A DNA stretch of 13,692 bases, taken from the IMG/VR virus record IMGVR_UViG_3300030320_000050, positions 1 to 13,692 of that record. One strand, given 5' to 3'. Shown piece after piece: positions 1-13,692 of the stretch (positions are counted from its first letter, which is position 1; each line of letters opens with the position of its first letter). Source of the DNA: a virus. A program made the translations under genes and the position numbers. The notes under the pieces were generated by a model that did not search any database, was not told the origin of the DNA, and saw nothing but the letters and a program-made list of their open reading frames with translations.

Positions 1-140
1 GGGACACGTAATAGCATTTTGCACAAATTTTTTCCCCCAAACGCATATATTTTTGTGCAATCTGCTAGTGCCCACAAATAACAGTACCCATCCCCCCCTG
101 CAGGGAATGGGTATGATCTAGTAATGATTATTATGAAATA
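1..140. repeat. Left inverted terminal repeat (perfect 1-96, imperfect to about 140)
   Basis: Base-by-base comparison with the reverse complement of 13552-13692 gives identity for 1-96. After that the left copy has 2 extra C (97-98), lacks a 6-nt AAGGGG block and has an extra 3-nt TAT/TTA unit. Similarity ends after TGAAATA (134-140). The terminus is 5-prime GGGACACG. Confidence 0.95.
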
Positions 141-145
141 ACTTG

Positions 146-154
146 TGCTATAAT
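146..154 (+). promoter_or_regulatory. Extended -10 promoter element TGcTATAAT (early promoter candidate P1)
   Basis: TG at 146-147 and TATAAT at 149-154. There is no good -35, which is typical for extended -10 promoters. It lies just inside the ITR boundary and upstream of an SD-preceded micro-ORF. Confidence 0.5.
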
Positions 155-179
155 ATCACTTAGAAAGGAGATGTAAAAC

Positions 180-257
180 ATGCTTAGTCTGCTGTGGGTC
201 CTTGGGGCCGTGATTGATATTTTGAGAGGGGTGAACAACGATGATTTCGATGATTAG
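180..257 (+). CDS. Micro-ORF, 25 aa (MLSLLWVLGAVIDILRGVNNDDFDD), hypothetical
   Basis: ATG at 180 is preceded by AAAGGAG (164-170) with a 9-nt spacer, and the stop is TAG 255-257. The N-terminal half is hydrophobic and the tail is acidic. It is too short for the supplied ORF track. Confidence 0.3.
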   Translation: MLSLLWVLGAVIDILRGVNNDDFDD

Positions 258-272
258 CAATATTTGCACGGT

Positions 273-329
273 TAGAATGTTATAATAGCAACATATGTAC
301 TATAGAATGTGGTACACTATAATTGTACC
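273..329 (+). promoter_or_regulatory. Early promoter cluster P2/P3 with operator-like repeats
   Basis: P2 is TGtTATAAT at 278-286. P3 is TATAAT at 318-323, sitting exactly in the 7-nt spacer of the inverted repeat GGTACA (311-316) / TGTACC (324-329). TAGAATGT is directly repeated at 273-280 and 303-310. TGTAC at 296-300 is also complementary to GTACA at 312-316. Confidence 0.45.
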
Positions 330-405
330 AAGAAAGAGGCCTACACCGGATGGCCTGACCCGGGCCCGTCCAGATCAGCCCCTTGGATGAAAGGAGATAA
401 CCACC

Positions 406-642
406 ATGATTATTAAAGACGCATTTGGCAACACTGCAGAGGTCCATCTGTACGACAAGGACACCGGCCTGGATTTTGTGGAAGAGTACCTGAATGCAGG
501 GTCCCTTGACCGTGATGCAGATGGCAATTACCTGGTTAAGGATGTCCCCTACATTATCGACTATACCACCGATGCATGCATCGGAAGCAACCCCGATTTT
601 GAAGAGCCATTGAATGCCGAATGGTACTACAAGGAGATGTGA
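406..642 (+). CDS. Hypothetical early protein, 78 aa, strongly acidic
   Basis: ATG at 406 is preceded by AAAGGAG. I count 11 Asp plus 7 Glu against 4 Lys plus 1 Arg. It is the first substantial gene after the left-end promoters. Confidence 0.8.
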   Translation: MIIKDAFGNTAEVHLYDKDTGLDFVEEYLNAGSLDRDADGNYLVKDVPYIIDYTTDACIGSNPDFEEPLNAEWYYKEM

Positions 643-644
643 CC

Positions 645-797
645 ATGAAGAAGATTATCATTGAAATCGCCGATGATTCTGTTGCCGTGAGCAGTGAGGA
701 CTTAAAGGAACTTACCCATGCTGACATTGCCATTTGTTTTAAAACACTTATTGATGTGGCGAAGATGCTTGGGCTTTGGGACAAGGAGGATACTTAA
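645..797 (+). CDS. Hypothetical early protein, 50 aa (MKKIIIEIADDSVAVSSEDLKELTHADIAICFKTLIDVAKMLGLWDKEDT)
   Basis: ATG at 645 lies 8 nt after AAGGAG (631-636) and the stop is TAA 795-797. It fills the gap between the flanking genes exactly. It is below the ORF-track size cutoff. Confidence 0.65.
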   Translation: MKKIIIEIADDSVAVSSEDLKELTHADIAICFKTLIDVAKMLGLWDKEDT

Positions 798-1052
798 ATG
801 GAAATGCGCAAGTTCATCGTTGAAATTCACCCGGACGGCCATGTGACGTGCTGCGAATATGAGGATCCCCGCGATGCCCGCAAAAGTGCCTGGCTTGCCG
901 GATTCCGTCAGGCCCTCGCTCATTGCGAAGAGCAGGTAGATATTTTTGAGGGATTCAAGGATGCCTGCCAGTCTGCCCGGCTCATGTACCAGGGTGCCGC
1001 TAAGGTCCGTGACGTTGTGGCATCCTGCTACCGTGAATACTACAGCGACTGA
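798..1052 (+). CDS. Hypothetical early protein, 84 aa
   Basis: ATG at 798 is preceded by AAGGAGGA (783-790) and directly abuts the previous stop. Its N-terminus (RKFIVEIHPDGHV) resembles that of the preceding ORF (KKIIIEIADDSVAV). Confidence 0.8.
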   Translation: MEMRKFIVEIHPDGHVTCCEYEDPRDARKSAWLAGFRQALAHCEEQVDIFEGFKDACQSARLMYQGAAKVRDVVASCYREYYSD

Positions 1053-1140
1053 TTAAGTCGAAACGGCCCACAGGGCCGTCTACCGGGACCGCCCGCCCGG
1101 TACTGATGATGACAGGGCCAAATGAAAGGAGTTTTGTATT

Positions 1141-1578
1141 ATGTCTGAAGCAATGACCAAATCCGAAAACACTGGTACCGCTATGACGGTGGCTGATGTG
1201 ATGAATACCGGTCTTGGGTACACCGATATGAACCTTGCTGACCGCTCTGCAGCAGTCGCGTTTTACAACGCGACAAGCAACCCCGTGAACAAGCTGAAAG
1301 AGCACATCAACGAGGTGTTGTCCTTGGTGCATGTGTCCGTGGAGTGCGTGGAGGTCAGCAAGGAGGATGCTTCGGAGGGCAAGGTGATCGCCCCGCGTAT
1401 CGTCCTTATCACGGAGGATGGGCAGTCTTACTCGTGTGTATCCGTCGGTGTTTACCAGTCGCTCAAACGTATGTTTGCGCTGCTGGGTGCTCCGGACACC
1501 TGGACCGAACCTGTGAAGATCAAACCCGTGCTGATTAGCACCAAGAAAGGTCAGGTCCTGTCCCTGAACCTGGTTTAA
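1141..1578 (+). CDS. Putative phage ssDNA-binding protein (early replication module), 145 aa
   Basis: Strong SD GAAAGGAG at 1124-1131. The gene sits just upstream of the terminal-protein and polymerase genes, as gene 5 does in phi29. The C-terminal pattern RIVLITEDGQSY..SVGVYQSL...WTEPVKIKPV..STKKGQVLSL recalls phage-associated SSB families. The function is recalled and inferred, not searched. Confidence 0.55.
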   Translation: MSEAMTKSENTGTAMTVADVMNTGLGYTDMNLADRSAAVAFYNATSNPVNKLKEHINEVLSLVHVSVECVEVSKEDASEGKVIAPRIVLITEDGQSYSCVSVGVYQSLKRMFALLGAPDTWTEPVKIKPVLISTKKGQVLSLNLV

Positions 1579-1588
1579 TTTGACCGGT

Positions 1589-1622
1589 GGCCACAGCACA
1601 AGTGCTGTGGCCTTATTTTGTT
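1589..1622 (+). terminator. Rho-independent terminator inside the early operon
   Basis: GGCCACAGCAC (1589-1599) pairs with GTGCTGTGGCC (1602-1612), effectively a 10-bp stem with a 4-nt loop, followed by TTATTTTGTT. Confidence 0.8.
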
Positions 1623-1635
1623 ATAGGAGATCACC

Positions 1636-1863
1636 ATGAAACGTGACAACAAAGCTATACTGCTAGATAGTGGCGACCCTATAGAGGGCCTGGCACTGGC
1701 CATTGTATACAGCGGAGTGATCGAAAAGGACGCAAAGTTTTTTTGCTCCGACTGGGCCAGGACCCTGTTTAGGTACTTGGGCATTGAAACAGATCCCCTA
1801 GACTGGTATCTGATGATTTTGGACAGAAAGGAACGTGAGAAGCATGGCAGCAGGCGCAGCTAA
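1636..1863 (+). CDS. Hypothetical early protein, 75 aa
   Basis: ATG at 1636 lies 5 nt after AGGAGA. The gene is in the replication module and its 3-prime end overlaps the next gene by 20 nt. Confidence 0.7.
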   Translation: MKRDNKAILLDSGDPIEGLALAIVYSGVIEKDAKFFCSDWARTLFRYLGIETDPLDWYLMILDRKEREKHGSRRS

Positions 1864-2443
1864 AGCAAGGGCGACCCTTAAATATGGTCCCGAATTATAT
1901 ACCCCCTATGCCCTGGAATCCTGGCCGGACAGCGAGATGCGCAAAGAATACACGCGTTTACGCGACATTGCACAGAAACGCCTTAAGCGTTTGTCAAAGG
2001 ACCCCATCAGCAGCACGAGCGACATTTACAAGGAATTCGCCGGAGGTTTTCCGACCATCAAAGCAATGCGCGGAGACCGGAAAGCGCTGGAACAAGCCCT
2101 TGCAGATGTGGCGCGTTTTGTCCGCGCCAAAGGGTCCACTGTAGGCGGAGCCCGTGAGGAATTTGCCGAAAAGATGAAAGTCGGCGGCATTGACGTGTCG
2201 GAGGTCCCCGAAGATCAGTACACGGCCCTGTCCGAATGGTGGGAGATCGTCAAGGCCTCCGGTGTGTATTATTATCCGTCAGATCAGCCCGTCATGTATT
2301 GGCGCGAAAAAGGCGGCTATAATGTCAGCATTGACGATTTTGTGAAATGGCAGCAAGGTGAGGTTAGTTATGGCACAGACTGGGACTATAGCGACGGCAG
2401 CAGCTCTGCCGACTTGCGCGGAGGTTTTGGCGGAGGCTTGTAA
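1844..2443 (+). CDS. Putative terminal protein (TP) for protein-primed replication, 199 aa
   Basis: It lies immediately upstream of the protein-primed PolB, as gene 3 does in phi29. The N-terminal segment is basic (EMRKEYTRLRDIAQKRLKRLSK, compare phi29 TP KAEYARLVKNTKAKIARTKKKYG from memory). The C-terminus is acidic and rich in Ser/Tyr (GTDWDYSDGSSSADL). ATG 1844 is preferred over GTG 1835 because of the AAAGGAA spacing. Confidence 0.6.
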   Translation: MAAGAAKARATLKYGPELYTPYALESWPDSEMRKEYTRLRDIAQKRLKRLSKDPISSTSDIYKEFAGGFPTIKAMRGDRKALEQALADVARFVRAKGSTVGGAREEFAEKMKVGGIDVSEVPEDQYTALSEWWEIVKASGVYYYPSDQPVMYWREKGGYNVSIDDFVKWQQGEVSYGTDWDYSDGSSSADLRGGFGGGL

Positions 2444-2465
2444 TTACAATCCCGTGCCCTGGCTT

Positions 2466-4460
2466 ATGGAGCACTTGGATTGCAAGCACACAAAAGGCAA
2501 AAAGCGCAAGACCAACAAAAAGCGGTTATATGTTAATATGCCGTGTGCGTTTGACATTGAGACCAGCCGAGTTTGTGCCGATGCAGACGGCAACCCCCAC
2601 ACTATCATGTATATCTGGCAATGTCAGCTTGGCCTGGATGTTACCATCATAGGCCGCACCTGGGACGAATGGCTGCATTTTACCGACGCGATCAGCGACT
2701 ACTTGCGGGCCAATAGTGGGCCGCAAGGCAGCTGGTATCTGTGCATGTATGTGCATAACCTTGCTCATGAGTTTCAGTACCTTTCCGGGGTCATGACTTT
2801 TGGCCCCGGTGAAGTGTTTGCAAGCAAGCCCCGCCGAGTGCTGAAATGTGACAACCGCGCGATAGAATACCGGTGCAGTATGCGGCATAGTAACCTATCA
2901 TTGGATGCATGGGGCAAACAGCTGGGTGCTCCGCATGCAAAATTAACAGGCACCCTTGACTACTCCAAAGTCCGGTACCCCTGGACCCCATTAACATCTA
3001 CAGAACTAGCATACTGTATCAATGATGTGCGGTGCATTGTGGAGTGCCTGCTGATCGAGATGGAGCGCGACGGCGACGACCTGTACACACTGCCATTGAC
3101 GCGCACCGGATACGTTCGGCGCATGGCGCGGCAAGCAATGTACAAGTGGGGCATTAACCGGGTCAAGCGCCTGCTGCCGTCGTGGGAACTATACCAAATG
3201 TTGCGTGAGGCATTCCGGGGCGGTGACACCCACGCCAATCGGTATTATGTCGGCCTCCATCTTGAGAACGTCGGGTCCGTCGATATGTCAAGCGCTTATC
3301 CTGCTGCGCAGTGCGAATGTTATTTTCCGATGACCCCATTTCGGCAGGAGCCTGCCACCGTGCAGCGGCTCATGCAATGTATGCGGCACGGCAAGGCCTG
3401 CCTGATGCGCCTACAGATCAAAGGATTACGTCAACGGTTTAAGTGGTGGGGATTTCCGTACATTCCGCTAGCCAAAGTCCGGCACTGCGGGGGGTACGTA
3501 AACGACAATGGCCGCTTGCTGTCTGCAGATCATTTTGAAATTACTATCACCGATATTGATTTTAGGATTATCGCCAAAGAATATGATTGGGATGCCCTCA
3601 ATGTGTTGGACTTGTACACGTCCGACTATGGCAAGCTGCCAGCGCCCTTGACAGATTGTGTAAAAGAGAGCTACACCGGCAAAACGTCCCTCAAAGGTGT
3701 AGCGGGTCAAGACCTGTATTATGTCAAAGCCAAAGGTGACTTAAACAGTTATTATGGCATGACAGCACAAGATCCGCTGCAGCTGGACACGCTTTTTGAC
3801 GAGGATGACCCAGATGAACTTTGGAGCGAATGCACCGACGACCCAGAGGGCAGTTATAACGATCACTGCCCGCATTTGTTTTTGCCATATCAGTGGGGCG
3901 TCTGGACTACAGCCCATACACGCAAGCGCCTCAAGATCGCACAATGGGCCGCAGGCAAAAATGGCGTGTACTGCGATACCGACAGCGTGAAATACATGGG
4001 TGACATCGACTTGACGGATTTTAACAAGTCCGTGAAGCAGCTTGCAAAAGATAATGGTGCCTGTGCTACAGACCCCAAAGGGCATGTGCACTATATGGGC
4101 GTGTACGAGCAGGAACGCAGTTATGCGGAATTTATGACCTGGGGCGCGAAAAAGTACGCAACCACCTACACCAAGGGCGGCAGAATTACCACCACGATTG
4201 CCGGAGTGAGCAAGCGCAAAGGCGGGCTGGAACTGGCCCTCTGGGGTGGTTTTGATGCCTTTAAGCCAGGCTTTACGTTTTGCCTGGCAGCTGGCAACAT
4301 GGTCATATATAATGATCGCCCAAAGGTGCCAGATTTTGTAGTTGACGGCCACACGGTCCACATAACCCGCAACCTATGTATCTGTGACAATACCTACACC
4401 CTGGGAATCACCGACGAATACGCCAAGATACTGGGGTATAAGATCATGGAGGTAGTTTGA
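2466..4460 (+). CDS. Family B DNA polymerase, protein-primed (phi29 gp2-like)
   Basis: Motifs in order: ExoI AFDIET, ExoII VHNLAHEFQYL, ExoIII AYCINDVRCIVECLL, motif A DMSSAYP, motif B KGDLNSYYG, motif C YCDTDS, and KxY GAKKYA. The start is ambiguous. ATG 2466 has no SD. ATG 2370 has an AAGGTGAGG SD but overlaps the TP gene by 74 nt. Confidence 0.95.
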   Translation: MEHLDCKHTKGKKRKTNKKRLYVNMPCAFDIETSRVCADADGNPHTIMYIWQCQLGLDVTIIGRTWDEWLHFTDAISDYLRANSGPQGSWYLCMYVHNLAHEFQYLSGVMTFGPGEVFASKPRRVLKCDNRAIEYRCSMRHSNLSLDAWGKQLGAPHAKLTGTLDYSKVRYPWTPLTSTELAYCINDVRCIVECLLIEMERDGDDLYTLPLTRTGYVRRMARQAMYKWGINRVKRLLPSWELYQMLREAFRGGDTHANRYYVGLHLENVGSVDMSSAYPAAQCECYFPMTPFRQEPATVQRLMQCMRHGKACLMRLQIKGLRQRFKWWGFPYIPLAKVRHCGGYVNDNGRLLSADHFEITITDIDFRIIAKEYDWDALNVLDLYTSDYGKLPAPLTDCVKESYTGKTSLKGVAGQDLYYVKAKGDLNSYYGMTAQDPLQLDTLFDEDDPDELWSECTDDPEGSYNDHCPHLFLPYQWGVWTTAHTRKRLKIAQWAAGKNGVYCDTDSVKYMGDIDLTDFNKSVKQLAKDNGACATDPKGHVHYMGVYEQERSYAEFMTWGAKKYATTYTKGGRITTTIAGVSKRKGGLELALWGGFDAFKPGFTFCLAAGNMVIYNDRPKVPDFVVDGHTVHITRNLCICDNTYTLGITDEYAKILGYKIMEVV

Positions 4461-5524
4461 TGATTAAGCTTTATACAGACGAGGGCTGGCCCAACTTTTC
4501 AGAGGATGACGGCATTCTATCCACCGGTGCCCCTATCATTTTTATCTGGGGCGGACGCGGCACCGGCAAAACATACGGAGCCCTCAAGCATGTGCACGAA
4601 AAAGAGGAAGAGTTTTTGTACTTGCGTCGCACGCCGCAGCAGGCGGAGTTGATTTGTTCGTCTCCATTGATGTGGCCATGGTCCCCGCTGAACAACGACC
4701 TGCATACACACTATGCGCCATTCAAAATGTCAAAAATTGCGGGCATGTACGAGGTGGGCAATGCCGGGGCCTATACTGACACTGGTGTACCTATTCGACC
4801 GGCGCAAATGTCTGGGGTGCTGGGCAATGTTGTCACAATGGCCCGCACCCGTGGCTTTTCGAGCCCTAACACCGATATTATAATCCTAGATGAATACCAA
4901 AAAGAGGAATCCGACTATTACCGGCGCGGAGAGGGCGTGGGCCTAGCGAACATATACGAGACGGTCAACCGCAACCGCGAATTGCAAGGACAAAAACCCA
5001 TCACGCTGCTGTGCATGTCGAATGCCGTGGGCATGGCGAACCCTTATTATATGCAATGGGATATTACCGATACCGTGGAAAAGATGATCGGAAAGAAAGA
5101 GCGCATCAAGCTGCTAAAAGACAAGGGCATTTTGCTGATTGACTTGGTGGATAGTCCCATCGCCAAGGAAAAAGCAAATACGGCTCTGTACCGGTCAATG
5201 AGTGGTACCGACTTTTACCGGTCCGCGATTGAAAACCAGTACAGCGCAGAGGAAAAAAGCCTGGTGGCGTCCCGCCCCTTGCGCGAATATTACCCCCTTG
5301 TGCAGATTGGCCGGTGCTGTATCTACGAGCATAAAAGCAAACCCGTCTATTATGTATGTCGGCACCGCTCCGGCGAAATGCCAATGTACGGCACCGGCGA
5401 CTATGAGCGCAAACGATTCCGGGCCGCGTATGGGTATATCTGGCCCGCATATCTGCAGCGGCAAATTGAGTTTGAGCGATATTCGGACGAAATTTTTTTC
5501 CGGGAATACTGCAGCAATACTTGA
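4460..5524 (+). CDS. DNA encapsidation (packaging) ATPase, phi29 gp16-like
   Basis: Walker A GGRGTGKTYG, Walker B IIILDEY, and LCMSNAVGMANPYY matching phi29 gp16 CLSNAVSVVNPYF (recalled). ATG 4460 overlaps the polymerase stop (TGATG) and GGAGG lies 7 nt upstream. Confidence 0.9.
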   Translation: MIKLYTDEGWPNFSEDDGILSTGAPIIFIWGGRGTGKTYGALKHVHEKEEEFLYLRRTPQQAELICSSPLMWPWSPLNNDLHTHYAPFKMSKIAGMYEVGNAGAYTDTGVPIRPAQMSGVLGNVVTMARTRGFSSPNTDIIILDEYQKEESDYYRRGEGVGLANIYETVNRNRELQGQKPITLLCMSNAVGMANPYYMQWDITDTVEKMIGKKERIKLLKDKGILLIDLVDSPIAKEKANTALYRSMSGTDFYRSAIENQYSAEEKSLVASRPLREYYPLVQIGRCCIYEHKSKPVYYVCRHRSGEMPMYGTGDYERKRFRAAYGYIWPAYLQRQIEFERYSDEIFFREYCSNT

Positions 5525-5548
5525 CTTTATCCCACAATCGAATATAAT
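5521..5548 (+). promoter_or_regulatory. Near-consensus sigma-A/sigma-70 type promoter, TTGACT-16 nt-TATAAT (late or middle promoter candidate)
   Basis: TTGACT at 5521-5526 overlaps the ATPase stop codon, the spacer is 16 nt, and TATAAT is at 5543-5548. This is the only -35/-10 pair of this quality that I found in the window. Confidence 0.65.
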
Positions 5549-5554
5549 AAAGAT

Positions 5555-5634
5555 AATCCCCGGTGCCCAAAGGCAGCTCCCAGAAGGAGCGGGCAAGCGT
5601 CAGCCAGCGCAAGAACCGGGGATTTTATTCTATT
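5555..5634 (+). ncRNA. Candidate small structured RNA / terminator-attenuator transcribed from the 5521 promoter
   Basis: A 10-bp closing helix pairs AATCCCCGGT (5555-5564) with ACCGGGGATT (5615-5624) and starts at the predicted +1. Inside, GCCC/GGGC (5565-5568/5591-5594) stacks on hairpin GCTCC-CAGAA-GGAGC (5576-5590), and a small second hairpin forms from GCG..CGC (5597-5610). The structure is followed by TTTTATTCTATT. Confidence 0.4.
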
Positions 5635-5657
5635 CATATTTTACGGAGGTACACAAA

Positions 5658-5813
5658 ATGGATGCTAGCACTGTGATTCAGGCTATTTCGAACGTTGGGT
5701 TTCCCATCGCGGCATTTTTGCTGATGTGGTACCAGTGCAACACTGTCGTGAGGGAAAACACGGCGGCTATTACCGAAATGCGTGTGGCCTTGGACGACAT
5801 CAAAAAAGGGTGA
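5658..5813 (+). CDS. YvrJ-family-like small membrane protein, 51 aa (possible holin)
   Basis: ATG at 5658 lies 7 nt after GGAGG (5646-5650). The sequence MDASTVIQAISNVGFPIAAFLLMWYQCNTVVRENTAAITEMRVALDDIKKG has one hydrophobic segment followed by a polar helix, like YvrJ proteins (..GFPI...FLL...). The longer ORF-track start at 5202 lies inside the ATPase gene and is rejected. Confidence 0.7.
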   Translation: MDASTVIQAISNVGFPIAAFLLMWYQCNTVVRENTAAITEMRVALDDIKKG

Positions 5814-5818
5814 TCGCC

Positions 5819-6052
5819 ATGGGATGCTACATTATTTTTGCTCAGTCGATTACCAACGAGCGTGCATACTTGCTGGCTGACTTGTGCACCCGTCTGGGCC
5901 TGGGCTATTACAGTGACTGGGCCAACGATGCCCGCACGCAGCAGTGCTGTGCCGTGGGTCCCGTCACCAAGGGTGACAAAGACCAGGTAGTTAAATGCCT
6001 GGCGCATGACACTTATGTTATTATGGAGGCGAAAAAAGTTGAAAACCAGTGA
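5819..6052 (+). CDS. Hypothetical protein, 77 aa
   Basis: This is the only + strand ORF filling 5814-6038. ATG 5819 has only a weak purine-rich upstream region (AAAAGGGTG). No motif was recognised. Confidence 0.5.
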   Translation: MGCYIIFAQSITNERAYLLADLCTRLGLGYYSDWANDARTQQCCAVGPVTKGDKDQVVKCLAHDTYVIMEAKKVENQ

Positions 6053-6431
6053 AAAAGCGGCCCTTGCCATGGCCGGTTACACCAAAGCCGAGATTGAGGC
6101 CATGGACAAACCCACGCAGACGGCCCCCGCCGCTGTGCAGAATCCTGCTATCCCGCAGCAGGTCCCGCCGTTGGCGGCTCCGCCCGCCAAGCAGATCGCA
6201 CCGCAGCCCGCCCAGCCCGCGCCGCAGCCCGTCGGCCAGTATGACGGCCTTGAAGCTCTGCTGCAGCAGATTTTGCAGGGTCAGCAGTCCACCACCCAGG
6301 CAATGCAGACCATGACCCAGACGATGCAGGCCAATGCGCTGGGACTTGGTATCCAGCAGCAGCCCGCAGCCGATGCAAGCACGGTGACGGCCCGTATCAT
6401 CGACCCCACGTATGGACAGGAGGTAAAATAA
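6039..6431 (+). CDS. Putative scaffolding protein, about 130 aa, with a Pro/Gln/Ala-rich centre
   Basis: It sits directly upstream of the capsid gene, as gp7 does in phi29. TTG at 6039 lies 9 nt after GGAGG (6025-6029). Alternative starts are ATG 6069 or ATG 6006, and neither has an SD. The C-terminal part is Q-rich and looks helical (LEALLQQILQGQQSTTQAMQTMTQTMQ). Confidence 0.55.
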   Translation: MKTSEKAALAMAGYTKAEIEAMDKPTQTAPAAVQNPAIPQQVPPLAAPPAKQIAPQPAQPAPQPVGQYDGLEALLQQILQGQQSTTQAMQTMTQTMQANALGLGIQQQPAADASTVTARIIDPTYGQEVK

Positions 6432-6432
6432 T

Positions 6433-7707
6433 ATGCCGCTTGGTATGAGTTTTGCGGACATTGCCGCAATTTTGACCGAGATCAACAAGATGGCAACCGG
6501 CCAGGAGCCCACGTCACCCATCGTGGACACCTCCAGTTTTGTGTCTGTAGCGCAGGCCACGCTGCTGACCGGCACCGACAACTACACCAAGGCAATCAGC
6601 CAGGTGCTGGGCCGCACTATTTTTGCGGTCCGGCCCTATGACGCGCCGATGAAGCGCCTGCAGGTTACCGGCGACGACTGGACTAACCACGTTCGCAAGA
6701 TCAATTTTTGCGATTCTGACCCCGTGACGGATAAAGCCTGGGCCCTGGAAGATGGCGATAGCGTCGACATGTACGAGGTACACAAGCCCCAGGTCCTGCA
6801 GACCAACTATTACGGCCAGACCAACTACAGCCGCGTATACACCCAGGCCGATACCCAGATGCAGGCGGCATTTAAGGGGCCGGAGGAGCTGGCACAGTTT
6901 TGGTCCTCTTTTGTGCTCCATCTGTCAAACCAGATCGAGGCCGACCGGCGCAACCTTGCAAACAACCTGATGGCAAACCACCTGACCGGCATGACCGTCA
7001 CCAGCCCCAAAAGCGTGATTTACCTGCTGGATGAGTACAACGCCCAGCAGGGCACCAAGCTCACGGTTGCCGACGTGTACAAAGAGGCCAATTTCCCCGG
7101 ATTTGCTAAGTTTGCATACGGGCGTATCAACGACATTTCCCGCCTGATGAAAGAACGCACGATCAACTGGCACCAGAACTGGACGATCGGCAGCAAGACT
7201 TACAACATTATGCGGCATACCCCGTATGATCGCCAGCACCTGTATCTGTACAGCGGCACCCAGAGCCAGATTGATGCCCGCGTTATTCCGGAGGTATTCC
7301 ACGATGACATGCTCCGGTACCGTGACGCGGAACAGGTCACGTTTTGGCAGGACATTGACGACCGCGAAACGATCGCCGCAACCCCTGTTGTTACCAGTAC
7401 GGCAGGCGCGGCAACCAAAAATGAAGCGGTGCAGCTGACCAACGTGTTTGGGTGCTTGCTGGACTGGGATGCAATCGGGTACACTCCGCGCCTGTCGCGT
7501 GTGGTCCCGACGCCCATGAACGCACGCGGCCTGTACACCAATTTCTGGTATCATTACGGCTGGAGCTGGTATGACGATTTTACCGAAAACGCCGTCCTGT
7601 TTTTGATGACGAAGGGCGACGTGACCGCGCCCAGCACTGGCCGTGCAGCCAAAGTCACCACCCTCAAAACTACCATGCACAAGGACGCTGACCCCTCCAA
7701 GTCCTGA
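6433..7707 (+). CDS. Major capsid protein, phi29 gp8-like
   Basis: 424 aa, with GGAGG 9 nt upstream. The C-terminal block ARGLYTNFWYHYGWSWYDDFTENAVLF parallels phi29 gp8 [27 protein letters not shown] (recalled). The gene is followed by a strong terminator. Confidence 0.9.
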   Translation: MPLGMSFADIAAILTEINKMATGQEPTSPIVDTSSFVSVAQATLLTGTDNYTKAISQVLGRTIFAVRPYDAPMKRLQVTGDDWTNHVRKINFCDSDPVTDKAWALEDGDSVDMYEVHKPQVLQTNYYGQTNYSRVYTQADTQMQAAFKGPEELAQFWSSFVLHLSNQIEADRRNLANNLMANHLTGMTVTSPKSVIYLLDEYNAQQGTKLTVADVYKEANFPGFAKFAYGRINDISRLMKERTINWHQNWTIGSKTYNIMRHTPYDRQHLYLYSGTQSQIDARVIPEVFHDDMLRYRDAEQVTFWQDIDDRETIAATPVVTSTAGAATKNEAVQLTNVFGCLLDWDAIGYTPRLSRVVPTPMNARGLYTNFWYHYGWSWYDDFTENAVLFLMTKGDVTAPSTGRAAKVTTLKTTMHKDADPSKS

Positions 7708-7712
7708 CCGGC

Positions 7713-7745
7713 ACCGGCGGGCTTTGGCCCCGCCGGTTATTTTAT
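7713..7745 (+). terminator. Rho-independent terminator after the capsid gene
   Basis: ACCGGCGGG (7713-7721) pairs with CCCGCCGGT (7729-7737) around a 7-nt loop, followed by TATTTTAT. Confidence 0.8.
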
Positions 7746-7760
7746 AAGAAGGTGCGCAGC

Positions 7761-9164
7761 ATGCAAGCAGTATTTTACCAAATCAACAAGCGCTCCAATA
7801 GTACCAAGTTACCCACCGGCGGGCGAACGTTTGAGATCAATCTCAAAAGCCCGTGTACCATCATCGACCCTGAAATTAAGATTGCTACAGAGAGTAACCC
7901 CACCGGGTACAATTATTGCAATATCCCCATTTTTGGCCGGTACTACTGGATTAAAAACTGGACATATTCGGACGCGCGCTGGATTGCATCCTTGACCGTC
8001 GACACCCTTGCAAGTTACCGGGACCAGATCAGCAGCGCTACAGAGTACGTTGTGAGATCGTCCGCCAAGTATGACGGCACAATTTCAGACGGCCTTTACC
8101 CGGCAACCGCTAAAGTGCAGAGCGTAACCACCTCTTTTCAAGGCGGATTTGCTGAAACAATCAGCGGTGGTTTTTTCGTGATAGGGTTTATTGCCAAAAA
8201 TGCCAACTCTATCGGAGCTATAACCTATGTAGTTATGACCCCCGGAAACGCTAAAAAACTATCTGCAAAATTGCTGACCGATGTATCATATCTTAGTATT
8301 GATAACACCGAAATCAGCGACAATTTGACAAAGGTCCTTTTCAATCCGTACCAGTATATCGTAAGTTGCAACTATTTTCCATTTGACATCGCTGAACTCA
8401 CCGCGCATTTGCCGCTTGTGGCTAAGATCGACGTGGGGTGGTGGTCTGTGGATGTCCCCGGCTGGATTTTGGGCGAAGATAACAATAACTTCAAAAAATC
8501 GGTAAGTGTGACTGTACCGAAGCACCCCCAGGCGGCAAATCGTGGCGAGTATTGCAATGTTGCCCCTTACACGGATTACACTATTTATTTGCAGCCCTAT
8601 GGAGTGATACCCCTTGATGCCTCTAAAATGTGGGGGGCTGCCACATTATCTATACAATATGTGACGGACCTTTTCACCGGTGACAGCGTACTGCGCATAT
8701 TTACAAATGGCAAACAGCTGGTACACGAGACGACCGCAAAACTAGGTGTGTCGGTGCAGCTGTCAAATATTAACTTTGGTATCCCCTCCGGCAGTGGTGG
8801 GCTTTTACAAACCGGTATTGCTGCAGCGTTTGGAGGTCTACAGGCGGCATTATCTGGCGGTACTTTTTCGGACGTCGGAAACGGTATTTTAAATGCAGCA
8901 CAAGCAACTAATGCGGATGTCGCAAGCAAAGGTGCTACAGGGTCTACAATCGCTTTTGATATGGCGCCCTACATGGTTGCCAGATTTAAAATTATTGTGG
9001 ACGACAACAACGAGGACCACGGCAGGCCCCTGTGCCAGCGGGTGCAGCTGTCCACCATCCCGGGGTTTATCATGGTTGATGACCCTGACCTTGCCTTACC
9101 GGCAACGGCCGCAGAGATCGACAGCGTCAAAAGCTTTTTGCGCAATGGATTTTTCCTTGAGTAG
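7761..9164 (+). CDS. Tail knob protein, phi29 gp9-like
   Basis: ATG 7761 lies downstream of AAGAAGGTG, and GTG 7752 is less likely. The layout matches gp9: a conserved N-terminal region (FGRYYWIKNW...), a Gly/Ala-rich flexible segment (GGLLQTGIAAAFGGLQAALSGG) and a C-terminal ...IDSVKSFLRNGFFLE, compare gp9 ..IRTIFDNGITLW (recalled). Its position after the capsid gene fits. Confidence 0.75.
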   Translation: MQAVFYQINKRSNSTKLPTGGRTFEINLKSPCTIIDPEIKIATESNPTGYNYCNIPIFGRYYWIKNWTYSDARWIASLTVDTLASYRDQISSATEYVVRSSAKYDGTISDGLYPATAKVQSVTTSFQGGFAETISGGFFVIGFIAKNANSIGAITYVVMTPGNAKKLSAKLLTDVSYLSIDNTEISDNLTKVLFNPYQYIVSCNYFPFDIAELTAHLPLVAKIDVGWWSVDVPGWILGEDNNNFKKSVSVTVPKHPQAANRGEYCNVAPYTDYTIYLQPYGVIPLDASKMWGAATLSIQYVTDLFTGDSVLRIFTNGKQLVHETTAKLGVSVQLSNINFGIPSGSGGLLQTGIAAAFGGLQAALSGGTFSDVGNGILNAAQATNADVASKGATGSTIAFDMAPYMVARFKIIVDDNNEDHGRPLCQRVQLSTIPGFIMVDDPDLALPATAAEIDSVKSFLRNGFFLE

Positions 9165-9178
9165 GAGGTGCCAAAACA

Positions 9179-9733
9179 ATGGCAGTATATAAGCAATGTA
9201 TTACAGGGGTATCACCAATTAGGGTATCGGCGGCATACCCCGCATACTCCGACGGCAGCTACCATGGCGGCATTGACACGGTGCATAAAGATCACAAGGC
9301 ATATGCACCAATGGCCGGCACGATCGTCACGGCCCATAAGTGGCAAGGCGGCACGACCGGCAACGATTCTTGGGGTAACTATATTGTAATTAAAATGAGC
9401 GATAACAGCTATTGGCTTGCAGCTCATTTTGCAAGCCAGATTCACAGCGTCGGCGAGACCATCACGCGCGGCCAATTTATTGGGCAGCAAGGCCAGACAG
9501 GCAACGCGAGCGGCATTCATACGCACTGGGAATACTGGGTAGGCGGTTATGGTACCGCGAACAGATCAGACCCCTCCGCCATTCTGGGCATTCCGAACCA
9601 GGTGGGAACCTGGGAAGTCGAATGGGATGCAAGCAATCCCCCCGGGCCGGGTCCTGGGCCGGGTCCGTGGCCTTCCGGCAAGCTGCCGGTGTGGCTGCTG
9701 TTTAAGATGGCAAAGGGGGGCAAGCTGCTGTGA
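9179..9733 (+). CDS. M23-family metallopeptidase (peptidoglycan endopeptidase; tail-associated lysin and/or endolysin)
   Basis: HxxxD motif YHGGIDT. The block AAHFASQIHSVGETITRGQFIGQQGQTGNASGIHTHWEYW matches the M23 consensus, including HxH. The C-terminus has a (PG)4 linker followed by GKLPVWLLFKMAKGGKLL. Confidence 0.9.
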   Translation: MAVYKQCITGVSPIRVSAAYPAYSDGSYHGGIDTVHKDHKAYAPMAGTIVTAHKWQGGTTGNDSWGNYIVIKMSDNSYWLAAHFASQIHSVGETITRGQFIGQQGQTGNASGIHTHWEYWVGGYGTANRSDPSAILGIPNQVGTWEVEWDASNPPGPGPGPGPWPSGKLPVWLLFKMAKGGKLL

Positions 9734-10671
9734 GTGCACCCTATAGCTATGATCAGATCAATGCCCATGTATCACCGGTAACACCGTCTGTCATGCACAC
9801 TAAGGGCAACAATCTGTCTTATTATTTTCGCAAATACCTGTTTTTGGAGGCGGTGGCAATGGTCCGGTGGACGCTCCCCGAAACCTGGCCCAGTAACCGC
9901 TTGCAATACCTGGTATTTGGCTCCGGCGGTGTGACGGTATTTAACACTGACCGGTATGGCCTGGTATATGATCGCATGGGACTGACCGGCATTAACATTT
10001 TTTATAATCCGACGCACTCAATCGTTGCAAATCCCTTTATCAAAGGGTCCCCGTATCTGCAGATCGGCAAGCAGTGCGAGATCATCAACCTGCAGCCTGA
10101 CTATAGGGGCATGGTGGACATTGTGGCATATTATGGGGACCTGATGGCCCTTGCCGCCCAGACCATCCAAAGCAATTTGATCAACAGCCGTTTGGCGTAT
10201 GTGTTTGCGGCAGGCAACAAGGCGGGTGCGGAATCTTTCAAAAAAATGTTTGACCAGATCATGCAGGGTGACCCCGCTGTATTCGTGGATTCCTCTTTGC
10301 TCAAAGCGTCCAAAAATGGGGGCACCGGGCAGAGCCCATGGATGTACTTTTCGGCAGACCTCAAAGGCAACTTTATCACCAATGAGCTGTTGACGGCCCT
10401 AAAAACCATCAAGGCGCTTTTTGACACGGAGGTCGGTATCCCCAACACCAACACGAGCAAAAAAGAGCGCATGTTGACCGATGAGGTCAATTCCAACAAC
10501 GTGGAGACAGCTGCAAAAGCGTCGCTGTGGCTGGACAGCCTGCAGCGCAGCTGCGAGCGAGTGCACAAACTTTTCCGCATTGACAGATCACAGTTGTGGG
10601 TTGATTGGAGATTCCCGCCCGACACGGGCACGCAGGAGGTGAGCAACAATGCACGCAACACTAAGCTTTAA
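9730..10671 (+). CDS. Portal / upper collar connector protein, phi29 gp10-like
   Basis: 313 aa. IPNTNTSKKERMLTDEVNSNNVETAAKASLWLDSLQRSCERVHKLF parallels gp10 [46 protein letters not shown] (recalled). The GTG start overlaps the previous stop (GTGA) and AAAGGGGGG lies 9 nt upstream. Confidence 0.9.
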   Translation: MSAPYSYDQINAHVSPVTPSVMHTKGNNLSYYFRKYLFLEAVAMVRWTLPETWPSNRLQYLVFGSGGVTVFNTDRYGLVYDRMGLTGINIFYNPTHSIVANPFIKGSPYLQIGKQCEIINLQPDYRGMVDIVAYYGDLMALAAQTIQSNLINSRLAYVFAAGNKAGAESFKKMFDQIMQGDPAVFVDSSLLKASKNGGTGQSPWMYFSADLKGNFITNELLTALKTIKALFDTEVGIPNTNTSKKERMLTDEVNSNNVETAAKASLWLDSLQRSCERVHKLFRIDRSQLWVDWRFPPDTGTQEVSNNARNTKL

Positions 10672-11338
10672 CGGGTTACTGGCAGGATACCCCACACTAT
10701 TCGACGACCTGCGAGTACCTGACAGCGTATCCAAAGAGGCGGTATGCAACCAGCTACTTTTTGATACGCTGGAGCTGGAGGTACTTTATACCGATGGCCC
10801 CACCATGCAAAGGGCCCTGGGGGTGTTTTCCCAAACCATGCTGCCCAGCTGGACCCGGTATGCCAAAGCCCTGGGCCTTGACTATGACGTGCTGGCCTCC
10901 GATGATCGTACCAGGACCGTGGAGCACAAGGGGACCAACAGCGGCGCCAACAGCAGCAAAAACGTGGTGGCAGGCAAAACTACCCGCACCCCGAACCTTA
11001 CCACTATCGGCCAAAACAATGGCAGTGACAACACTACCAGGGATGTGACGGGTTTTGACAGCGGGGCCTTTGTGCCCGCCGAAAAGAGTACCACCACCCT
11101 GGGCACCGGTAACAAGATCACCAGCACCGGCACCGACACAACCACCGACGACCAGACAACCACCAACAACGGCAGCACGAAGGCCGAAGACAGCTACAAA
11201 GACACCGTGACCGAAAAGGGCAGGGCGGGCAAAGACCCGCAGGACCTGATCGCCAAGGAGCTGACCATTGCGGCCAAAAACGCGGTGAATAAGATCGTTG
11301 CAGATATTCAGGCAAACTTTTGCCTGCTGGTATATTAA
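10649..11338 (+). CDS. Putative lower collar / tail tube protein (gp11 position)
   Basis: ATG 10649 follows GGAGGTG and overlaps the portal gene by 23 nt. The assignment rests on synteny (portal followed by lower collar in phi29-like phages). A long Thr/Asn/Gly-rich segment is compatible with beta-hairpin tube elements. No motif-level match was recalled. Confidence 0.55.
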   Translation: MHATLSFNGLLAGYPTLFDDLRVPDSVSKEAVCNQLLFDTLELEVLYTDGPTMQRALGVFSQTMLPSWTRYAKALGLDYDVLASDDRTRTVEHKGTNSGANSSKNVVAGKTTRTPNLTTIGQNNGSDNTTRDVTGFDSGAFVPAEKSTTTLGTGNKITSTGTDTTTDDQTTTNNGSTKAEDSYKDTVTEKGRAGKDPQDLIAKELTIAAKNAVNKIVADIQANFCLLVY

Positions 11339-11352
11339 GGAGATGGCAGCGA

Positions 11353-11994
11353 ATGAATGACATTTATCCGATTCACAAGGCGCCTTACACCAATTTCCAC
11401 GATCTTAATCTTGACTGGATTATTGACACGCTCAATGACATTGACCGGAGGCTTGCAAATTTTGTTAGCCTGAATACAATCAAGTACGCAGACCCCATTA
11501 AGTGGGACATCACCAGCCAGTACGCGCAAAACACCCTGGTTCTGGACCCGCAGGACGGCACTGCATATCTTTCCGTTCAGCCCGTCCCCCAGGGGGTGCA
11601 GATCACAAATACTGACTACTGGACCCCCGTGTTTACCCTGCAAAATTTTATTGACCCGCTCAAAAATGCTATCACAGCAGCCCCGCAGCAGGAAAACGGA
11701 CAGGCCGCAACCGAACAATTACCCGCAAACAGTGTGTTTTTTGTTGGGGATATCCTTTGCACAAACCCCCAGGTCATCCCAAAAACGTCGCTTGTGGTGA
11801 TTGGAACGAATTGCGTGGAAGTTTCCGTGGTCGACCTTATTTCACGACTGTTTAGCACGCCCACGGCGTGGTATCGGGTAAGCGATACTAGTATTAACAT
11901 GGGATTCCCGTCCAGTGCGGCAAGTACCGTATACGGCGGTGACGTCCATGTGTATAATCCGACAGACCAAACCATTACCATTACAGGGAGGTAA
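11353..11994 (+). CDS. Putative tail fiber / appendage (receptor-binding module) protein, 213 aa
   Basis: ATG 11353 lies 9 nt after AAGGAG, and the ORF-track start at 11320 overlaps the previous gene. The N-terminus ...FHDLNLDWIIDTLNDIDRRL... resembles the conserved N-terminal anchor of Firmicute phage fiber or spike proteins (recalled, weak). The position after the collar genes fits. Confidence 0.5.
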   Translation: MNDIYPIHKAPYTNFHDLNLDWIIDTLNDIDRRLANFVSLNTIKYADPIKWDITSQYAQNTLVLDPQDGTAYLSVQPVPQGVQITNTDYWTPVFTLQNFIDPLKNAITAAPQQENGQAATEQLPANSVFFVGDILCTNPQVIPKTSLVVIGTNCVEVSVVDLISRLFSTPTAWYRVSDTSINMGFPSSAASTVYGGDVHVYNPTDQTITITGR

Positions 11995-11999
11995 GTACA

Positions 12000-12260
12000 A
12001 TGCCTGATGTATCTATTTTTAATCTGGGTGGCCAGAACCTTAACGTAAAAGACGCCACTGCCCGCAGCAACGCGCAGAGCGCCAACACCGCAGCCACGGA
12101 GGCAGCAAAAACGGCAAACGAAGCGCTTAAAAAAGCTCAAGAGATTGAGAAACTTTCCCGCGTGACTGTTACCTATGAGCCGACTCACGAAACCATCACC
12201 ATTACTACCGCAACCCACACCACTACCGCAACCCGCACCGCGACCGATTCCAAGAAGTAA
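12000..12260 (+). CDS. Small fiber-associated coiled-coil protein, 86 aa
   Basis: GGGAGG lies 9 nt upstream. The N-terminal NLNVKDATAR motif is shared with the next gene (YKVKDTTAR). It has an Ala/Lys/Glu helical segment and a Thr-rich tail containing an 18-bp x2 repeat (12204-12239). Confidence 0.55.
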   Translation: MPDVSIFNLGGQNLNVKDATARSNAQSANTAATEAAKTANEALKKAQEIEKLSRVTVTYEPTHETITITTATHTTTATRTATDSKK

Positions 12261-12270
12261 GGAGGTTACC

Positions 12271-13542
12271 ATGGCAGAGTTTGATAAAATCAACATTGAT
12301 GCCGTCTCCTACAAAGTCAAAGATACCACCGCCAGACAGCAGATCGCTGACGAAATTACCGCCCGCGAGCAGGCAGATACACAGCTGCAGCAGGCCATTA
12401 CAGCAGAGCAGAACGCCCGCAAGCAGGCTATTACGGCAGAGCAGACCGCCCGCGAGCAGGCTATCACAGCAGAGCAGAACGCCCGCGAGCAGGCGGACAA
12501 AAAGCTCCAAAACGAGATTGACGTCCTGCATAGCATCGCCCGCCCGAAAAAGTACCTATTTGTCGGTGACAGCTATTCAATGGGAGAGGGGGCCGGTGTA
12601 AGTCCTGGCATGGGATGGGCTCAAAAAGTCCCGCAAATTCTGGGCCTTGCATCCGGTGAATATTACAAAGCATGCCAAGGTGGATATGGATTTTCCAGGG
12701 CTGGCTACAAATTCGCAGACCTTGTAACGTCCGTATTGCCCACAATCCCGGACCCGACTGAAATCACCGATATTTACGTTTTCGGCGGGTACAATGACAA
12801 CAACTACGCCGGCAACACAATCACGGCAGACATCGCTTCTTTTGCAAGGCTCTGCAAAACAAATTTCCCGAATGCCATTGTGCATATTGGTATGATTGCA
12901 TGGAGCCCGGACAGGCAAGCCAGAGCCAACATTGCCAATAACGTACTGCCCGCATATGCCGCATGTGGTGAGAGCAACTGTGCATACCTGCCGGGATGTG
13001 AGCAGATCATGCACAATTATACACTGTTTTCGTCCGACAACATTCACCCCAATGATGCAGGGTATCAGTTGCTAGCGGGAGCTATTGTAAGCGCTATTAA
13101 AACGGGCGCCTATGCCGCGCAATTTGCGTACAACAGCATTGAGCTTACACCCGCTGGCATTGCAACAAAATATTCATGGGGTGGATTTTCGGAATGCATT
13201 TATGCAAACACCTGGACCCTTGCAAAAGCAGACGACAACAGACTGACCGTCACTTGTGCATCCCAAACAATTAAGGGAGACACAAAGTATAGTATCGGCA
13301 CACTTTCGACAAAATACGGACGCCCGTATGATATCGCTATGGCTTGCCAAGCTATGACGACAGGGTATGTTGTGGGTGATGGAGGATTCCACAAAATCAA
13401 CTGTCAGCTAATGGTAAAAGGCACGGACCTCTCCATTCTAAACGTTACATTGCCCGACACGGGTGCATATGTCAATTTGACAGGAGTAACGCAGATCGCC
13501 CTACAGATTCCAACGTTTACTATGTGTTCGTTGTTTGTGTAA
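12271..13542 (+). CDS. Tail fiber with coiled-coil stalk, SGNH/GDSL esterase domain and C-terminal beta-rich domain, 423 aa
   Basis: ATG 12271 lies 5 nt after AAGGAGG. SGNH blocks are present: block I YLFVGDSYSMGEG, block II QGGYGF, block III FGGYNDNN and block V SSDNIHPNDAGY. The N-terminus has a VKDTTAR motif followed by 3 x 11-aa repeats. The upstream in-frame extension to 12175 is rejected. Confidence 0.8.
   Translation: MAEFDKINIDAVSYKVKDTTARQQIADEITAREQADTQLQQAITAEQNARKQAITAEQTAREQAITAEQNAREQADKKLQNEIDVLHSIARPKKYLFVGDSYSMGEGAGVSPGMGWAQKVPQILGLASGEYYKACQGGYGFSRAGYKFADLVTSVLPTIPDPTEITDIYVFGGYNDNNYAGNTITADIASFARLCKTNFPNAIVHIGMIAWSPDRQARANIANNVLPAYAACGESNCAYLPGCEQIMHNYTLFSSDNIHPNDAGYQLLAGAIVSAIKTGAYAAQFAYNSIELTPAGIATKYSWGGFSECIYANTWTLAKADDNRLTVTCASQTIKGDTKYSIGTLSTKYGRPYDIAMACQAMTTGYVVGDGGFHKINCQLMVKGTDLSILNVTLPDTGAYVNLTGVTQIALQIPTFTMCSLFV
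12394..12492 (+). repeat. Tandem repeat, 3 x 33 bp, inside the fiber gene (AITAEQNARKQ / AITAEQTAREQ / AITAEQNAREQ)
   Basis: Units at 12394-12426, 12427-12459 and 12460-12492 differ at only a few positions. A partial related unit (ITAREQAD) lies just upstream. Confidence 0.95.
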
Positions 13543-13551
13543 TAGCGTTTA

Positions 13552-13692
13552 TATTTCATAATCATTACTAGATCATACCCATTCCCCTTCCCTGCAGGGG
13601 GATGGGTACTGTTATTTGTGGGCACTAGCAGATTGCACAAAAATATATGCGTTTGGGGGAAAAAATTTGTGCAAAATGCTATTACGTGTCCC
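13552..13692. repeat. Right inverted terminal repeat (perfect 13597-13692, imperfect from about 13552)
   Basis: Reverse complement of the left end, as described for 1-140. Confidence 0.95.

Follow-up and report, generated by a model that had tools for sequence, protein, structure and literature searches.

The element described here lies at positions 5521-5634 of a 13,692-nucleotide stretch of phage DNA (IMG/VR virus record IMGVR_UViG_3300030320_000050, positions 1 to 13,692; hereafter the window), and it is composed of a promoter followed directly by a candidate structured RNA, both on the + strand. The promoter includes a -35 hexamer (TTGACT, 5521-5526), of which TTGAC is kept across the group of close relatives to which the window belongs, and, after a 16-nucleotide spacer, a -10 hexamer (TATAAT, 5543-5548) that predicts a transcription start at about 5554-5556. 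With 11 of 12 positions matched, this is the best sigma-70-type promoter of the window, as claimed in a preliminary description of this DNA, whose other statements on the sequence (the promoter, the helix, and the positions of a GGC and a GCC discussed below) also hold on re-inspection. The TGA stop codon of the upstream gene, which codes for a gp16-type DNA packaging ATPase, falls within the -35 hexamer, and this gene is not part of the RNA unit.

The structured RNA (5555-5624, 70 nucleotides) starts 6 nucleotides downstream of the -10 hexamer. Its closing stem, P1, is formed by perfect pairing of AATCCCCGGT (5555-5564) with ACCGGGGATT (5615-5624) and encloses a second stem, P2, in which GCCC (5565-5568) pairs with GGGC (5591-5594). 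The 5' strand of P2 is followed by a 7-nucleotide bulge, AAAGGCA (5569-5575), and by the P3 hairpin GCUCC-CAGAA-GGAGC (5576-5590), whose pentaloop (5581-5585) has the consensus C-N-G-A-A. After the 3' strand of P2 comes the P4 hairpin GCGU-CAGCCA-GCGC (5597-5610), and the junction strand AAGA (5611-5614), where an N-N-G-A-N motif recurs in closer lineages, leads back to P1. The GGC of the bulge (5572-5574) pairs with the GCC of the P4 loop (5603-5605). A U-rich run directly after P1 (5623-5634, comprising T5623-T5626 and then ATTCTATT) is terminator-like, suggesting that P1 would be the terminator stem and that transcription might end there.

The 80-nucleotide stretch that holds these features has a predicted folding energy of -34.3 kcal/mol (RNAfold, z = -4.08), and none of 200 shuffled sequences folds as well. 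The minimum free energy (MFE) fold of the window alone contains a GCC-CAAA-GGC hairpin, which we rejected since L122, L081, and other lineages (designated here by L numbers) change GCCC/GGGC compensatorily and break GCC-CAAA-GGC. The GCCC/GGGC helix was preferred because single-sequence MFE folds independently give the same layout in eight lineages. Thus the stacking of GCCC/GGGC on GCUCC-CAGAA-GGAGC, as originally drawn, is supported by compensatory changes in relatives against the MFE fold of the window. The P1 stem and the run UUUUAUU are both present, and a simple terminator scan omits the site because its "loop" is a 50-nucleotide folded domain. A long open reading frame across the element (5202-5813) was discounted because of its overlap with the ATPase gene and because the changes seen across the region are those of paired helices, with insertions and deletions. 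Judged from sequence, the element is a gene for a small structured RNA of about 70 nucleotides, with predicted transcript ends and a putative termination site.

The promoter-RNA unit recurs across 21 phage lineages, over a range of 25-99% identity between their packaging ATPases. All 80 IMG/VR contigs first fetched via the ATPase (91-99% amino acid identity) carry the element directly after the ATPase gene. More distant contigs were represented by ATPase homologs at 82, 74, 57, 55, 42, 41, and 38% identity and by GenBank gut-phage records at 35-25%. Because plain MAFFT misaligned the helices in distant lineages, 18 lineages were parsed by hand, with every parse checked against the source sequence, and three further lineages (L134, L141, and L142) were read from folds and sequence. 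The plan shared by all lineages begins with a sigma-A-type promoter, which is followed by P1, P2, a 7-10-nucleotide bulge on the 5' strand, the P3 hairpin with its pentaloop, and the 3' strand of P2. A junction of 0-4 nucleotides, the P4 hairpin, a junction of 0-8 nucleotides, and the 3' strand of P1 complete the structure.

Every helix of this model covaries, which answers the suggestion in the preliminary description that compensatory changes be sought in related genomes. Among 46 distinct variants in the window group, the core loops are invariant and the -35 and -10 hexamers are kept while their spacer drifts. Within this group, P1 carries compensatory changes (CCCCGG/CCGGGG, CCCAGG/CCTGGG, CCTTGG/CCAAGG, and CTCAGG/CCTGAG), as does P3 (GCUCC/GGAGC and GCCCC/GGGGC). 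Across lineages, covariation was assessed on an N-padded, ungapped, hand-made alignment of 33 sequences from 18 lineages. Standard pairs fill 95.1% of its cells, a figure somewhat inflated by fitting the alignment to the structure, compared with 61.7% in shuffles and 27-41% when partners are slid. Changes on both sides are seen in 27 of the 29 pairs, and the covariation score is 0.72 versus 0.14 in shuffles.

Each stem contributes to this pattern. All cells of P1 are paired and its nine aligned pairs have each changed on both sides. P2 is likewise paired in 100% of cells, with GCCC/GGGC covarying as GUCC/GGAC, GACC/GGUC, GGGU/ACCC, and CCUC/GAGG. Double changes occur in five of five P3 pairs and in four of five pairs of P4, whose cells are again 100% paired. 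In addition, 36 cells hold G-U pairs that are compatible with the + strand only; these would be A-C mismatches on the other strand, and the structure therefore belongs to the + strand transcript. Given the effect size, the slid-partner control, and the independent MFE folds, we regard the predicted helices as secure.

The bulge and the P4 loop remain complementary while their sequences change, over 3-8 nucleotides in 21 lineages. The GGC:GCC pairing of the window, previously viewed with reserve as only three base pairs, is one state of a bulge-loop interaction that covaries across lineages. Other states are GGCA:UGCC in L122, GUGC:GCAC in L081 and L144, UGUGC:GCACA in L137, UAGCA:UGCUA in L116-L120, GUGCA:UGCAC in L138, GAGCA:UGCUC in L139, and GUCG:CGAC in L133. 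The series continues with GCUA:UAGC in L140, AAUCA:UGAUU in L131, AAAAGGAA:UUCCUUUU in L132, UGUGC:GCACA in L141 and L134, and AGCAA:UUGCU in L142. The three central pairs of this pseudoknot are 97-100% paired, with three to four standard pair types each, in an alignment whose pseudoknot register was chosen per sequence. Because of this choice, and because the alignment was fitted to the structure, we also ran a register-free test in which cognate bulges and loops were compared with non-cognate ones. Among 15 distinct bulge/loop combinations, cognate partners share an average of 4.4 complementary nucleotides versus 2.39 for non-cognate partners, none of 100,000 permutations reaches the cognate value, and a loop-shuffle control gives 2.71 +/- 0.20.

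The P3 pentaloop is CAGAA, CUGAA, CGGAA, or CCGAA in all 18 hand-parsed lineages. A Python descriptor anchored on this C-N-G-A-A loop recovered most tested sites, missed L132 and L144, and returned five matches without a U-rich tail that are probably false. A covariance model (R1), trained only on lineages with at least 55% ATPase identity, found the untrained group at 41-42% identity with E values of 1e-7 to 1e-10, with no other match at E ≤ 10 in 210 kb. With filters off, R1 also located L139 (1e-5) and both L131 and L140 (6e-3), exactly at the hand-found sites. It missed L133 and L129 and found only part of L132, and these three lineages rest on the hand parse.

Some members of the family are larger, all within about 100-115 nucleotides: the RNAs of L141 and L142 are about 100 nucleotides long with a long interrupted P1, and that of L134 reaches about 110 nucleotides. 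In L134 (MT837693.1, 4075-4225), the RNA is accompanied by a separate terminator hairpin and P3 is replaced by two hairpins, whereas the bulge AUGUGCA and the loop UCGCACA retain UGUGC:GCACA. The L134 parse is tentative, as its MFE fold suggests a competing helix.

The promoter is conserved together with the RNA. TTGACA or TTGACT is present in 16 of 18 lineages, and the distance from the end of the -10 hexamer to the first base of P1 is 3-8 nucleotides, mostly 6, in all 18. From this constant placement we infer that the transcript starts at the helix.

Although the RNA directly follows the ATPase gene in the window, we rejected the idea that it is a partner of the gp16 gene, as this adjacency is lost in L144, L140, and L142. 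In L144, the ATPase gene occupies the right end of the genome, the late genes are encoded on the opposite strand, and the promoter-RNA unit is upstream of a holin gene that heads the late operon. In MT835998.1, the ATPase gene is on the minus strand (9375-10439), and the RNA (1048-1122, + strand) precedes a YvrJ-like gene and the late genes. In both L144 and L140 the ATPase gene is kilobases distant or encoded on the other strand, with the RNA still heading the late operon, and the order in L142 is polymerase, RNA, ATPase, capsid. The adjacency to the ATPase gene is incidental, and the conserved partner of the RNA is the start of the late operon at the early/late boundary.

In the window, the gap between the U run and the ribosome binding site (RBS) of the next gene is only about 20 nucleotides. 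A second promoter would not fit ahead of the following RBS in the window, L144, and other lineages, where late mRNAs must therefore begin with the RNA and pass P1 and the U run. At least three U nucleotides occur within 8 nucleotides after P1 in most lineages with the miniature form, and this feature is weak in L081, L132, and L139. The first downstream gene varies by lineage, with YvrJ-like, holin_4_1, scaffold-like, and ATPase genes all represented.

Several other features were observed near the RNA or in the late operon. In one subgroup (L041, L042, L044, L047, L049, L052, L054, L057, L062, L064-L066, and L069), the first late gene product begins MNVYAVL... rather than with the YvrJ-like MDA(S/N)TVIQ..., and these phages retain the RNA and its promoter. 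Between the RNA and the following RBS, L116-L120 and L138 (for example, L118 at about 4140-4165) share a conserved palindrome, TTGTATACA-N2-3-GTATACA. It immediately precedes the Shine-Dalgarno sequence of the first late gene and could be an operator or an RBS hairpin. In L142 (MT836502.1), a 183-nucleotide non-coding gap (2601-2784) separates the ATPase gene from the next late gene. The strongest simple terminator of the window (7713-7737, + strand) has a 9-base-pair stem with eight GC pairs followed by TATTTTAT and is located right after the gene for the major head protein. As this terminator is inside the late operon, the downstream tail and connector genes would need read-through.

The window is a complete linear genome of 13,692 base pairs from a very small phi29-like podophage. 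This conclusion follows from inverted terminal repeats at both ends (1-135 and 13558-13692), of which about 96 nucleotides are exact reverse complements and the remainder, to about 135 nucleotides, is similar with small indels. Each repeat also contains a GC-rich hairpin (85-113 and 13576-13608), followed by CTGTTATTTG reading toward the genome end. Every large gene is carried on the + strand. Upstream of the RNA are genes for the single-stranded DNA-binding protein SSB (1141-1578) and a type-B DNA polymerase (2358-4460), followed by the ATPase gene (4457-5524). The gp16-like identity given to this neighbor in the preliminary description is confirmed by PF05894 (Podovirus_Gp16) on homologs and by phrog_2150 (terminase). 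The first late gene (5658-5813, ATG at 5658, RBS GGAGG at 5645-5649) codes for a 51-amino-acid YvrJ/holin-like protein matching phrog_4898 (holin), and its YvrJ assignment derives from a weak PF12841 match on the L121 homolog. Farther downstream are genes for the major head protein (6433-7707), an M23 peptidase (9179-9733), and the upper collar connector (9730-10671).

Window proteins match phrog_2150, phrog_2038, and phrog_2006, and those of relatives match PF05894, PF03175, PF25622, and PF05352. Every phage that carries the RNA is phi29-like and encodes a gp16 ATPase, a connector, and a capsid protein of the phi29 type. The closest deposited record to the window is MT836263.1, an unannotated human-faecal phage contig. 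By ATPase, the nearest cultured relatives are the Amedibacillus phages AD70P2 and AD70P3 (Guelinviridae), followed by Bacillus phi29-like phages, and AD70P3 itself (OP172639.1) carries a member of the RNA family (L129, 5864-5925).

The window also carries a full-length type II hammerhead ribozyme (RF02276) in the early operon, directly upstream of the SSB gene (1056-1121, + strand; 46.1 bits versus a gathering score of 37, E = 6e-7). A second example occupies the equivalent relative position in L144 (6816-6879, + strand; 47.9 bits), a lineage at 57% ATPase identity, and no hammerhead above the gathering score was found in the close relative MT836263.1 or the other loci scanned. ARAGORN detected no tRNA or tmRNA gene in the window.

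Because structure, tertiary pairing, and phage group all point in this direction, we lean towards the view that the element is probably a miniature packaging RNA (pRNA) of the phi29 type, either a relative or an analogue, that is expressed as a terminated leader and may also have an attenuating side-effect in cis. A pRNA-like role was one of two suggestions in the preliminary description. This suggestion is strongly backed by comparison among relatives, as the order of helices matches the Rfam pRNA consensus and the bulge-loop pairing covaries. Its argument from adjacency to the gp16 gene fails. The other suggestion was an arrangement like lambda PR'/6S. Its layout of promoter, short RNA, U-rich run, and late genes without room for another promoter is borne out, except that the U tract is absent in L141 and L142. 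These two suggestions are not mutually exclusive.

Under the pRNA-type model, host sigma-A RNA polymerase would start at about position 5555, and the transcript would fold as a three-way junction in which P1 pairs the transcript ends, like the A helix of phi29 pRNA, and offers a helix on which the gp16-type ATPase could dock. Pairing between GGC in the bulge of one molecule and GCC in the P4 loop of a neighboring one might create a ring on the portal vertex of the prohead, an intermolecular arrangement proposed by analogy to phi29, and the invariant C-N-G-A-A loop might contact prohead proteins. With the RNA gene joined to the head of the late operon in these very small genomes, P1 followed by the U run would serve as a leaky terminator, or processing would act where there is no U run. 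One promoter could thereby yield many free RNAs and fewer read-through late mRNAs.

Several observations weigh against this model. A scan with the Rfam pRNA family (RF00044), as suggested in the preliminary description, gives no match at E ≤ 10 on the window or 10 relatives, with a phi29 positive control scoring 145.4 bits, and formal membership by this family model thus fails. Phi29 gp16 needs a long bulged A helix, and the window P1 has only 10 base pairs and no such helix. However the genes are ordered, the RNA always occupies the 5' end of the late operon. L141 and L142 have no U tract and place the RBS within about 10 nucleotides of the RNA, so that a free small RNA there would need processing. 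In addition, the kissing pair of the window is only three base pairs, and the P2 and P4 arms are similar in length (4-5 versus 3-5 base pairs), which makes an intramolecular bulge-loop contact sterically conceivable, unlike in phi29. For phi29 pRNA itself, the loop pairing was at first depicted within one molecule, until trans-complementation showed that it joins separate molecules. With regard to the family scan, known pRNAs share only about 12% sequence identity while their structure is kept (PMC5066667), which makes the RF00044 test a narrow one.

That the RNA heads the late operon whether the genome layout is collinear, divergent, or convergent is what would be expected if it were instead a cis-acting leader that controls late transcription and whose bulge-loop pseudoknot forms within one molecule, the main rival explanation, which we consider rather unlikely. 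Such a leader might be an attenuator, in which termination at P1 and the U run is relieved by binding of a phage factor, for instance to the C-N-G-A-A loop (compare lambda PR'-6S with Q), or a processive antitermination RNA like HK022 put or Bacillus subtilis EAR. This explanation is favored by the need for late mRNAs to traverse P1 and the U run where a second promoter has no room, by the direct passage of the L141 and L142 RNAs into an RBS with no terminator, by the strong terminator after the capsid gene inside the late operon, and by arm lengths that permit intramolecular docking. However, it leaves unexplained why a pRNA topology occurs in exactly the phage group that uses pRNA. Beyond the pentaloop, there is no conserved sequence common to all lineages to serve as a binding site, the first downstream gene differs among lineages, and no alternative antiterminator pairing is seen. 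Rfam gives no match to EAR or any other leader on the window or 10 relatives (E ≤ 10), and no antiterminator protein has been identified, in the course of an analysis that made no search aimed at one.

Two other roles fit the data far less well. The GC-rich closing helix and subsequent U-rich run could belong to a plain intrinsic terminator of the early operon, or the helix could be a 5' hairpin that stabilizes the late mRNA, with no specific role for the inner helices; 5'-terminal stem-loops stabilize mRNAs in Firmicutes, and the minus strand folds well too. We judge this very improbable, as the promoter lies upstream rather than downstream of the helix, L139 has a separate ordinary terminator before the promoter, and the G-U pairs fit the + strand only. 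Moreover, a terminator or stabilizer needs far less than what is kept at 25-99% ATPase identity, namely three helices inside P1, a pentaloop that does not change, and a tertiary pairing that covaries. A metabolite-sensing riboswitch, with P1 doubling as a terminator stem, shares the layout of a promoter, a three-way junction with a tertiary loop contact, a U run, and an RBS, and yet we find it hardly credible. The junctions J12, J24, and J41 vary in length (0-8 nucleotides) and in sequence, only C-N-G-A-A is universal among the hand-parsed lineages, and junction strands this variable provide no conserved ligand pocket. No Rfam family matches the element in the window or 10 relatives (E ≤ 10), and the genes downstream, which serve structure and lysis, suggest no metabolic logic.

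On a more tentative view, pRNA would be no peculiarity of Bacillus phages but an ancestral and widespread part of phi29-type motors, which in the smallest gut phages is reduced to about 65-75 nucleotides and merged with the late leader. Its docking helix would double as the terminator controlling how much packaging RNA is made relative to late mRNA, and the same molecule would serve in the motor and gate transcription. If the pRNA-type reading is correct, such a fusion would be a new coupling of motor assembly to late gene expression and would bear on whether pRNA is ancestral or a late recruit. The RNA would also provide a natural minimal self-assembling three-way junction for pRNA nanotechnology. 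A pRNA in gut phages would allow direct tests of how other phi29-like phages join a gp16-type ATPase to the prohead, and one carrier (Amedibacillus phage AD70P3) is cultured. Should the cis-leader explanation prove right, the RNA would represent a new, unreported class of structured late-operon leader in small Firmicutes phages.

Our literature search returned no report of this RNA family or of a pRNA-type reading of it. According to a 2024 review (PMC11476376), pRNA-dependent packaging is confined to phi29 and its relatives among Bacillus phages. In papers on phi29-like phages of Clostridium, pRNA appears solely as the partner of the phi29 ATPase, and a preprint mentions a predicted pRNA in an archaeal ampullavirus. 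Fremin et al. 2023 (PMC10690425) list six unnamed structured-RNA candidates that are consistently upstream of Podovirus_gp16 genes in IMG/VR phage contigs, an arrangement shared by L142, where the RNA is directly upstream of the gp16 gene. That article offers no interpretation of these candidates and gives no structure, pRNA reading, or covariation analysis for them.

Among known systems, lambda PR'-6S-tR' resembles the locus in having a constitutive-looking promoter and a short transcript to a terminator-like site, followed by lysis and structural genes. In lambda, however, the 6S transcript is not known to contain a three-way junction or tertiary pairing that is conserved, and read-through needs Q at the promoter. 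No Q-like protein or site was identified here, in an analysis that included no search aimed at one, and two lineages lack the U tract. HK022 putL/putR and B. subtilis EAR are also structured RNAs of about 70-120 nucleotides at the 5' end of long operons with internal terminators. However, the window RNA has no Rfam similarity to such families. HK022 put forms two stem-loops rather than a three-way junction, and neither put nor EAR is known to have a terminator-like end directly after the RNA.

Phi29 pRNA (reference family RF00044, gathering score of 100 bits) is known from the Bacillus phages phi29, PZA, B103, M2, Nf, SF5, and GA-1, whereas the carriers of the window RNA are gut Firmicutes phages (Guelinviridae-like). 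The window RNA has 70 nucleotides and so falls short of the 117-174 nucleotides of pRNAs, and its P1 of 10 base pairs contrasts with an A helix of about 25 base pairs with bulges. Its E-type loop is C-N-G-A-A rather than UUGAGU, and the junction strands differ in length. The gene heads the late operon with a U run right after P1, whereas the pRNA gene is at the genome end and has a separate terminator domain. Size need not bar the comparison, because nucleotides 23-97 of phi29 pRNA (about 75 nucleotides) are enough for prohead binding and self-association (PMC4201828), and the forms of 100-115 nucleotides in L141, L142, and L134 bridge the two sizes. Natural pRNAs also use two to five kissing pairs (PMC4201828).

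A further candidate was noted in Enterococcus phage vB_EfaP_2/Chl-5 (L143, 4590-4760; PV455607.1, Salasmaviridae), where an unannotated 268-nucleotide gap lies between the early and late operons. The gap contains an extended -10 promoter and a structured RNA of about 115 nucleotides with a hairpin-plus-U7 terminator of its own, after which another promoter precedes the scaffold gene. This RNA includes a C-helix, a 6-nucleotide bulge, a hairpin, and a second hairpin, with UGU:ACA complementarity. It has no RF00044 match and its only relatives are 97-100% identical, and from its layout it is possibly an unannotated pRNA.

The likeness between the window RNA and phi29 pRNA is most apparent in their architecture. 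Mapped on phi29, the RF00044 consensus consists of the A helix, 1 nucleotide, the C helix, a 9-nucleotide 5' bulge, the E hairpin, the 3' strand of C, 3 nucleotides, the D hairpin, and the 3' strand of A. The topology is identical, with P1, P2, P3, and P4 as the analogues of the A, C, E, and D helices, the bulge as that of the CE/right-hand loop, and the P4 loop as that of the left-hand loop. In both, the 5' and 3' ends are paired around a three-way junction, and the phage that encodes the RNA is phi29-like, is protein-primed, and has a gp16 ATPase. The 3' part of the bulge, next to the E helix, is in each case complementary to the D-type loop (AACC:GGUU in phi29), and this pairing covaries between phages. 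In both RNAs, the C-E arm also ends in a conserved loop. The phi29 E-loop nucleotides U54, G55, and A56 contact the capsid (PMC6542822), and the C-N-G-A-A loop would be their counterpart. The phi29 ATPase is connected to the prohead chiefly through pRNA (10.1101/2020.07.06.188573). Finally, a consensus sigma-A promoter stands a few nucleotides before the first paired base in both systems, with the phi29 A1 promoter located 7 nucleotides before the pRNA.

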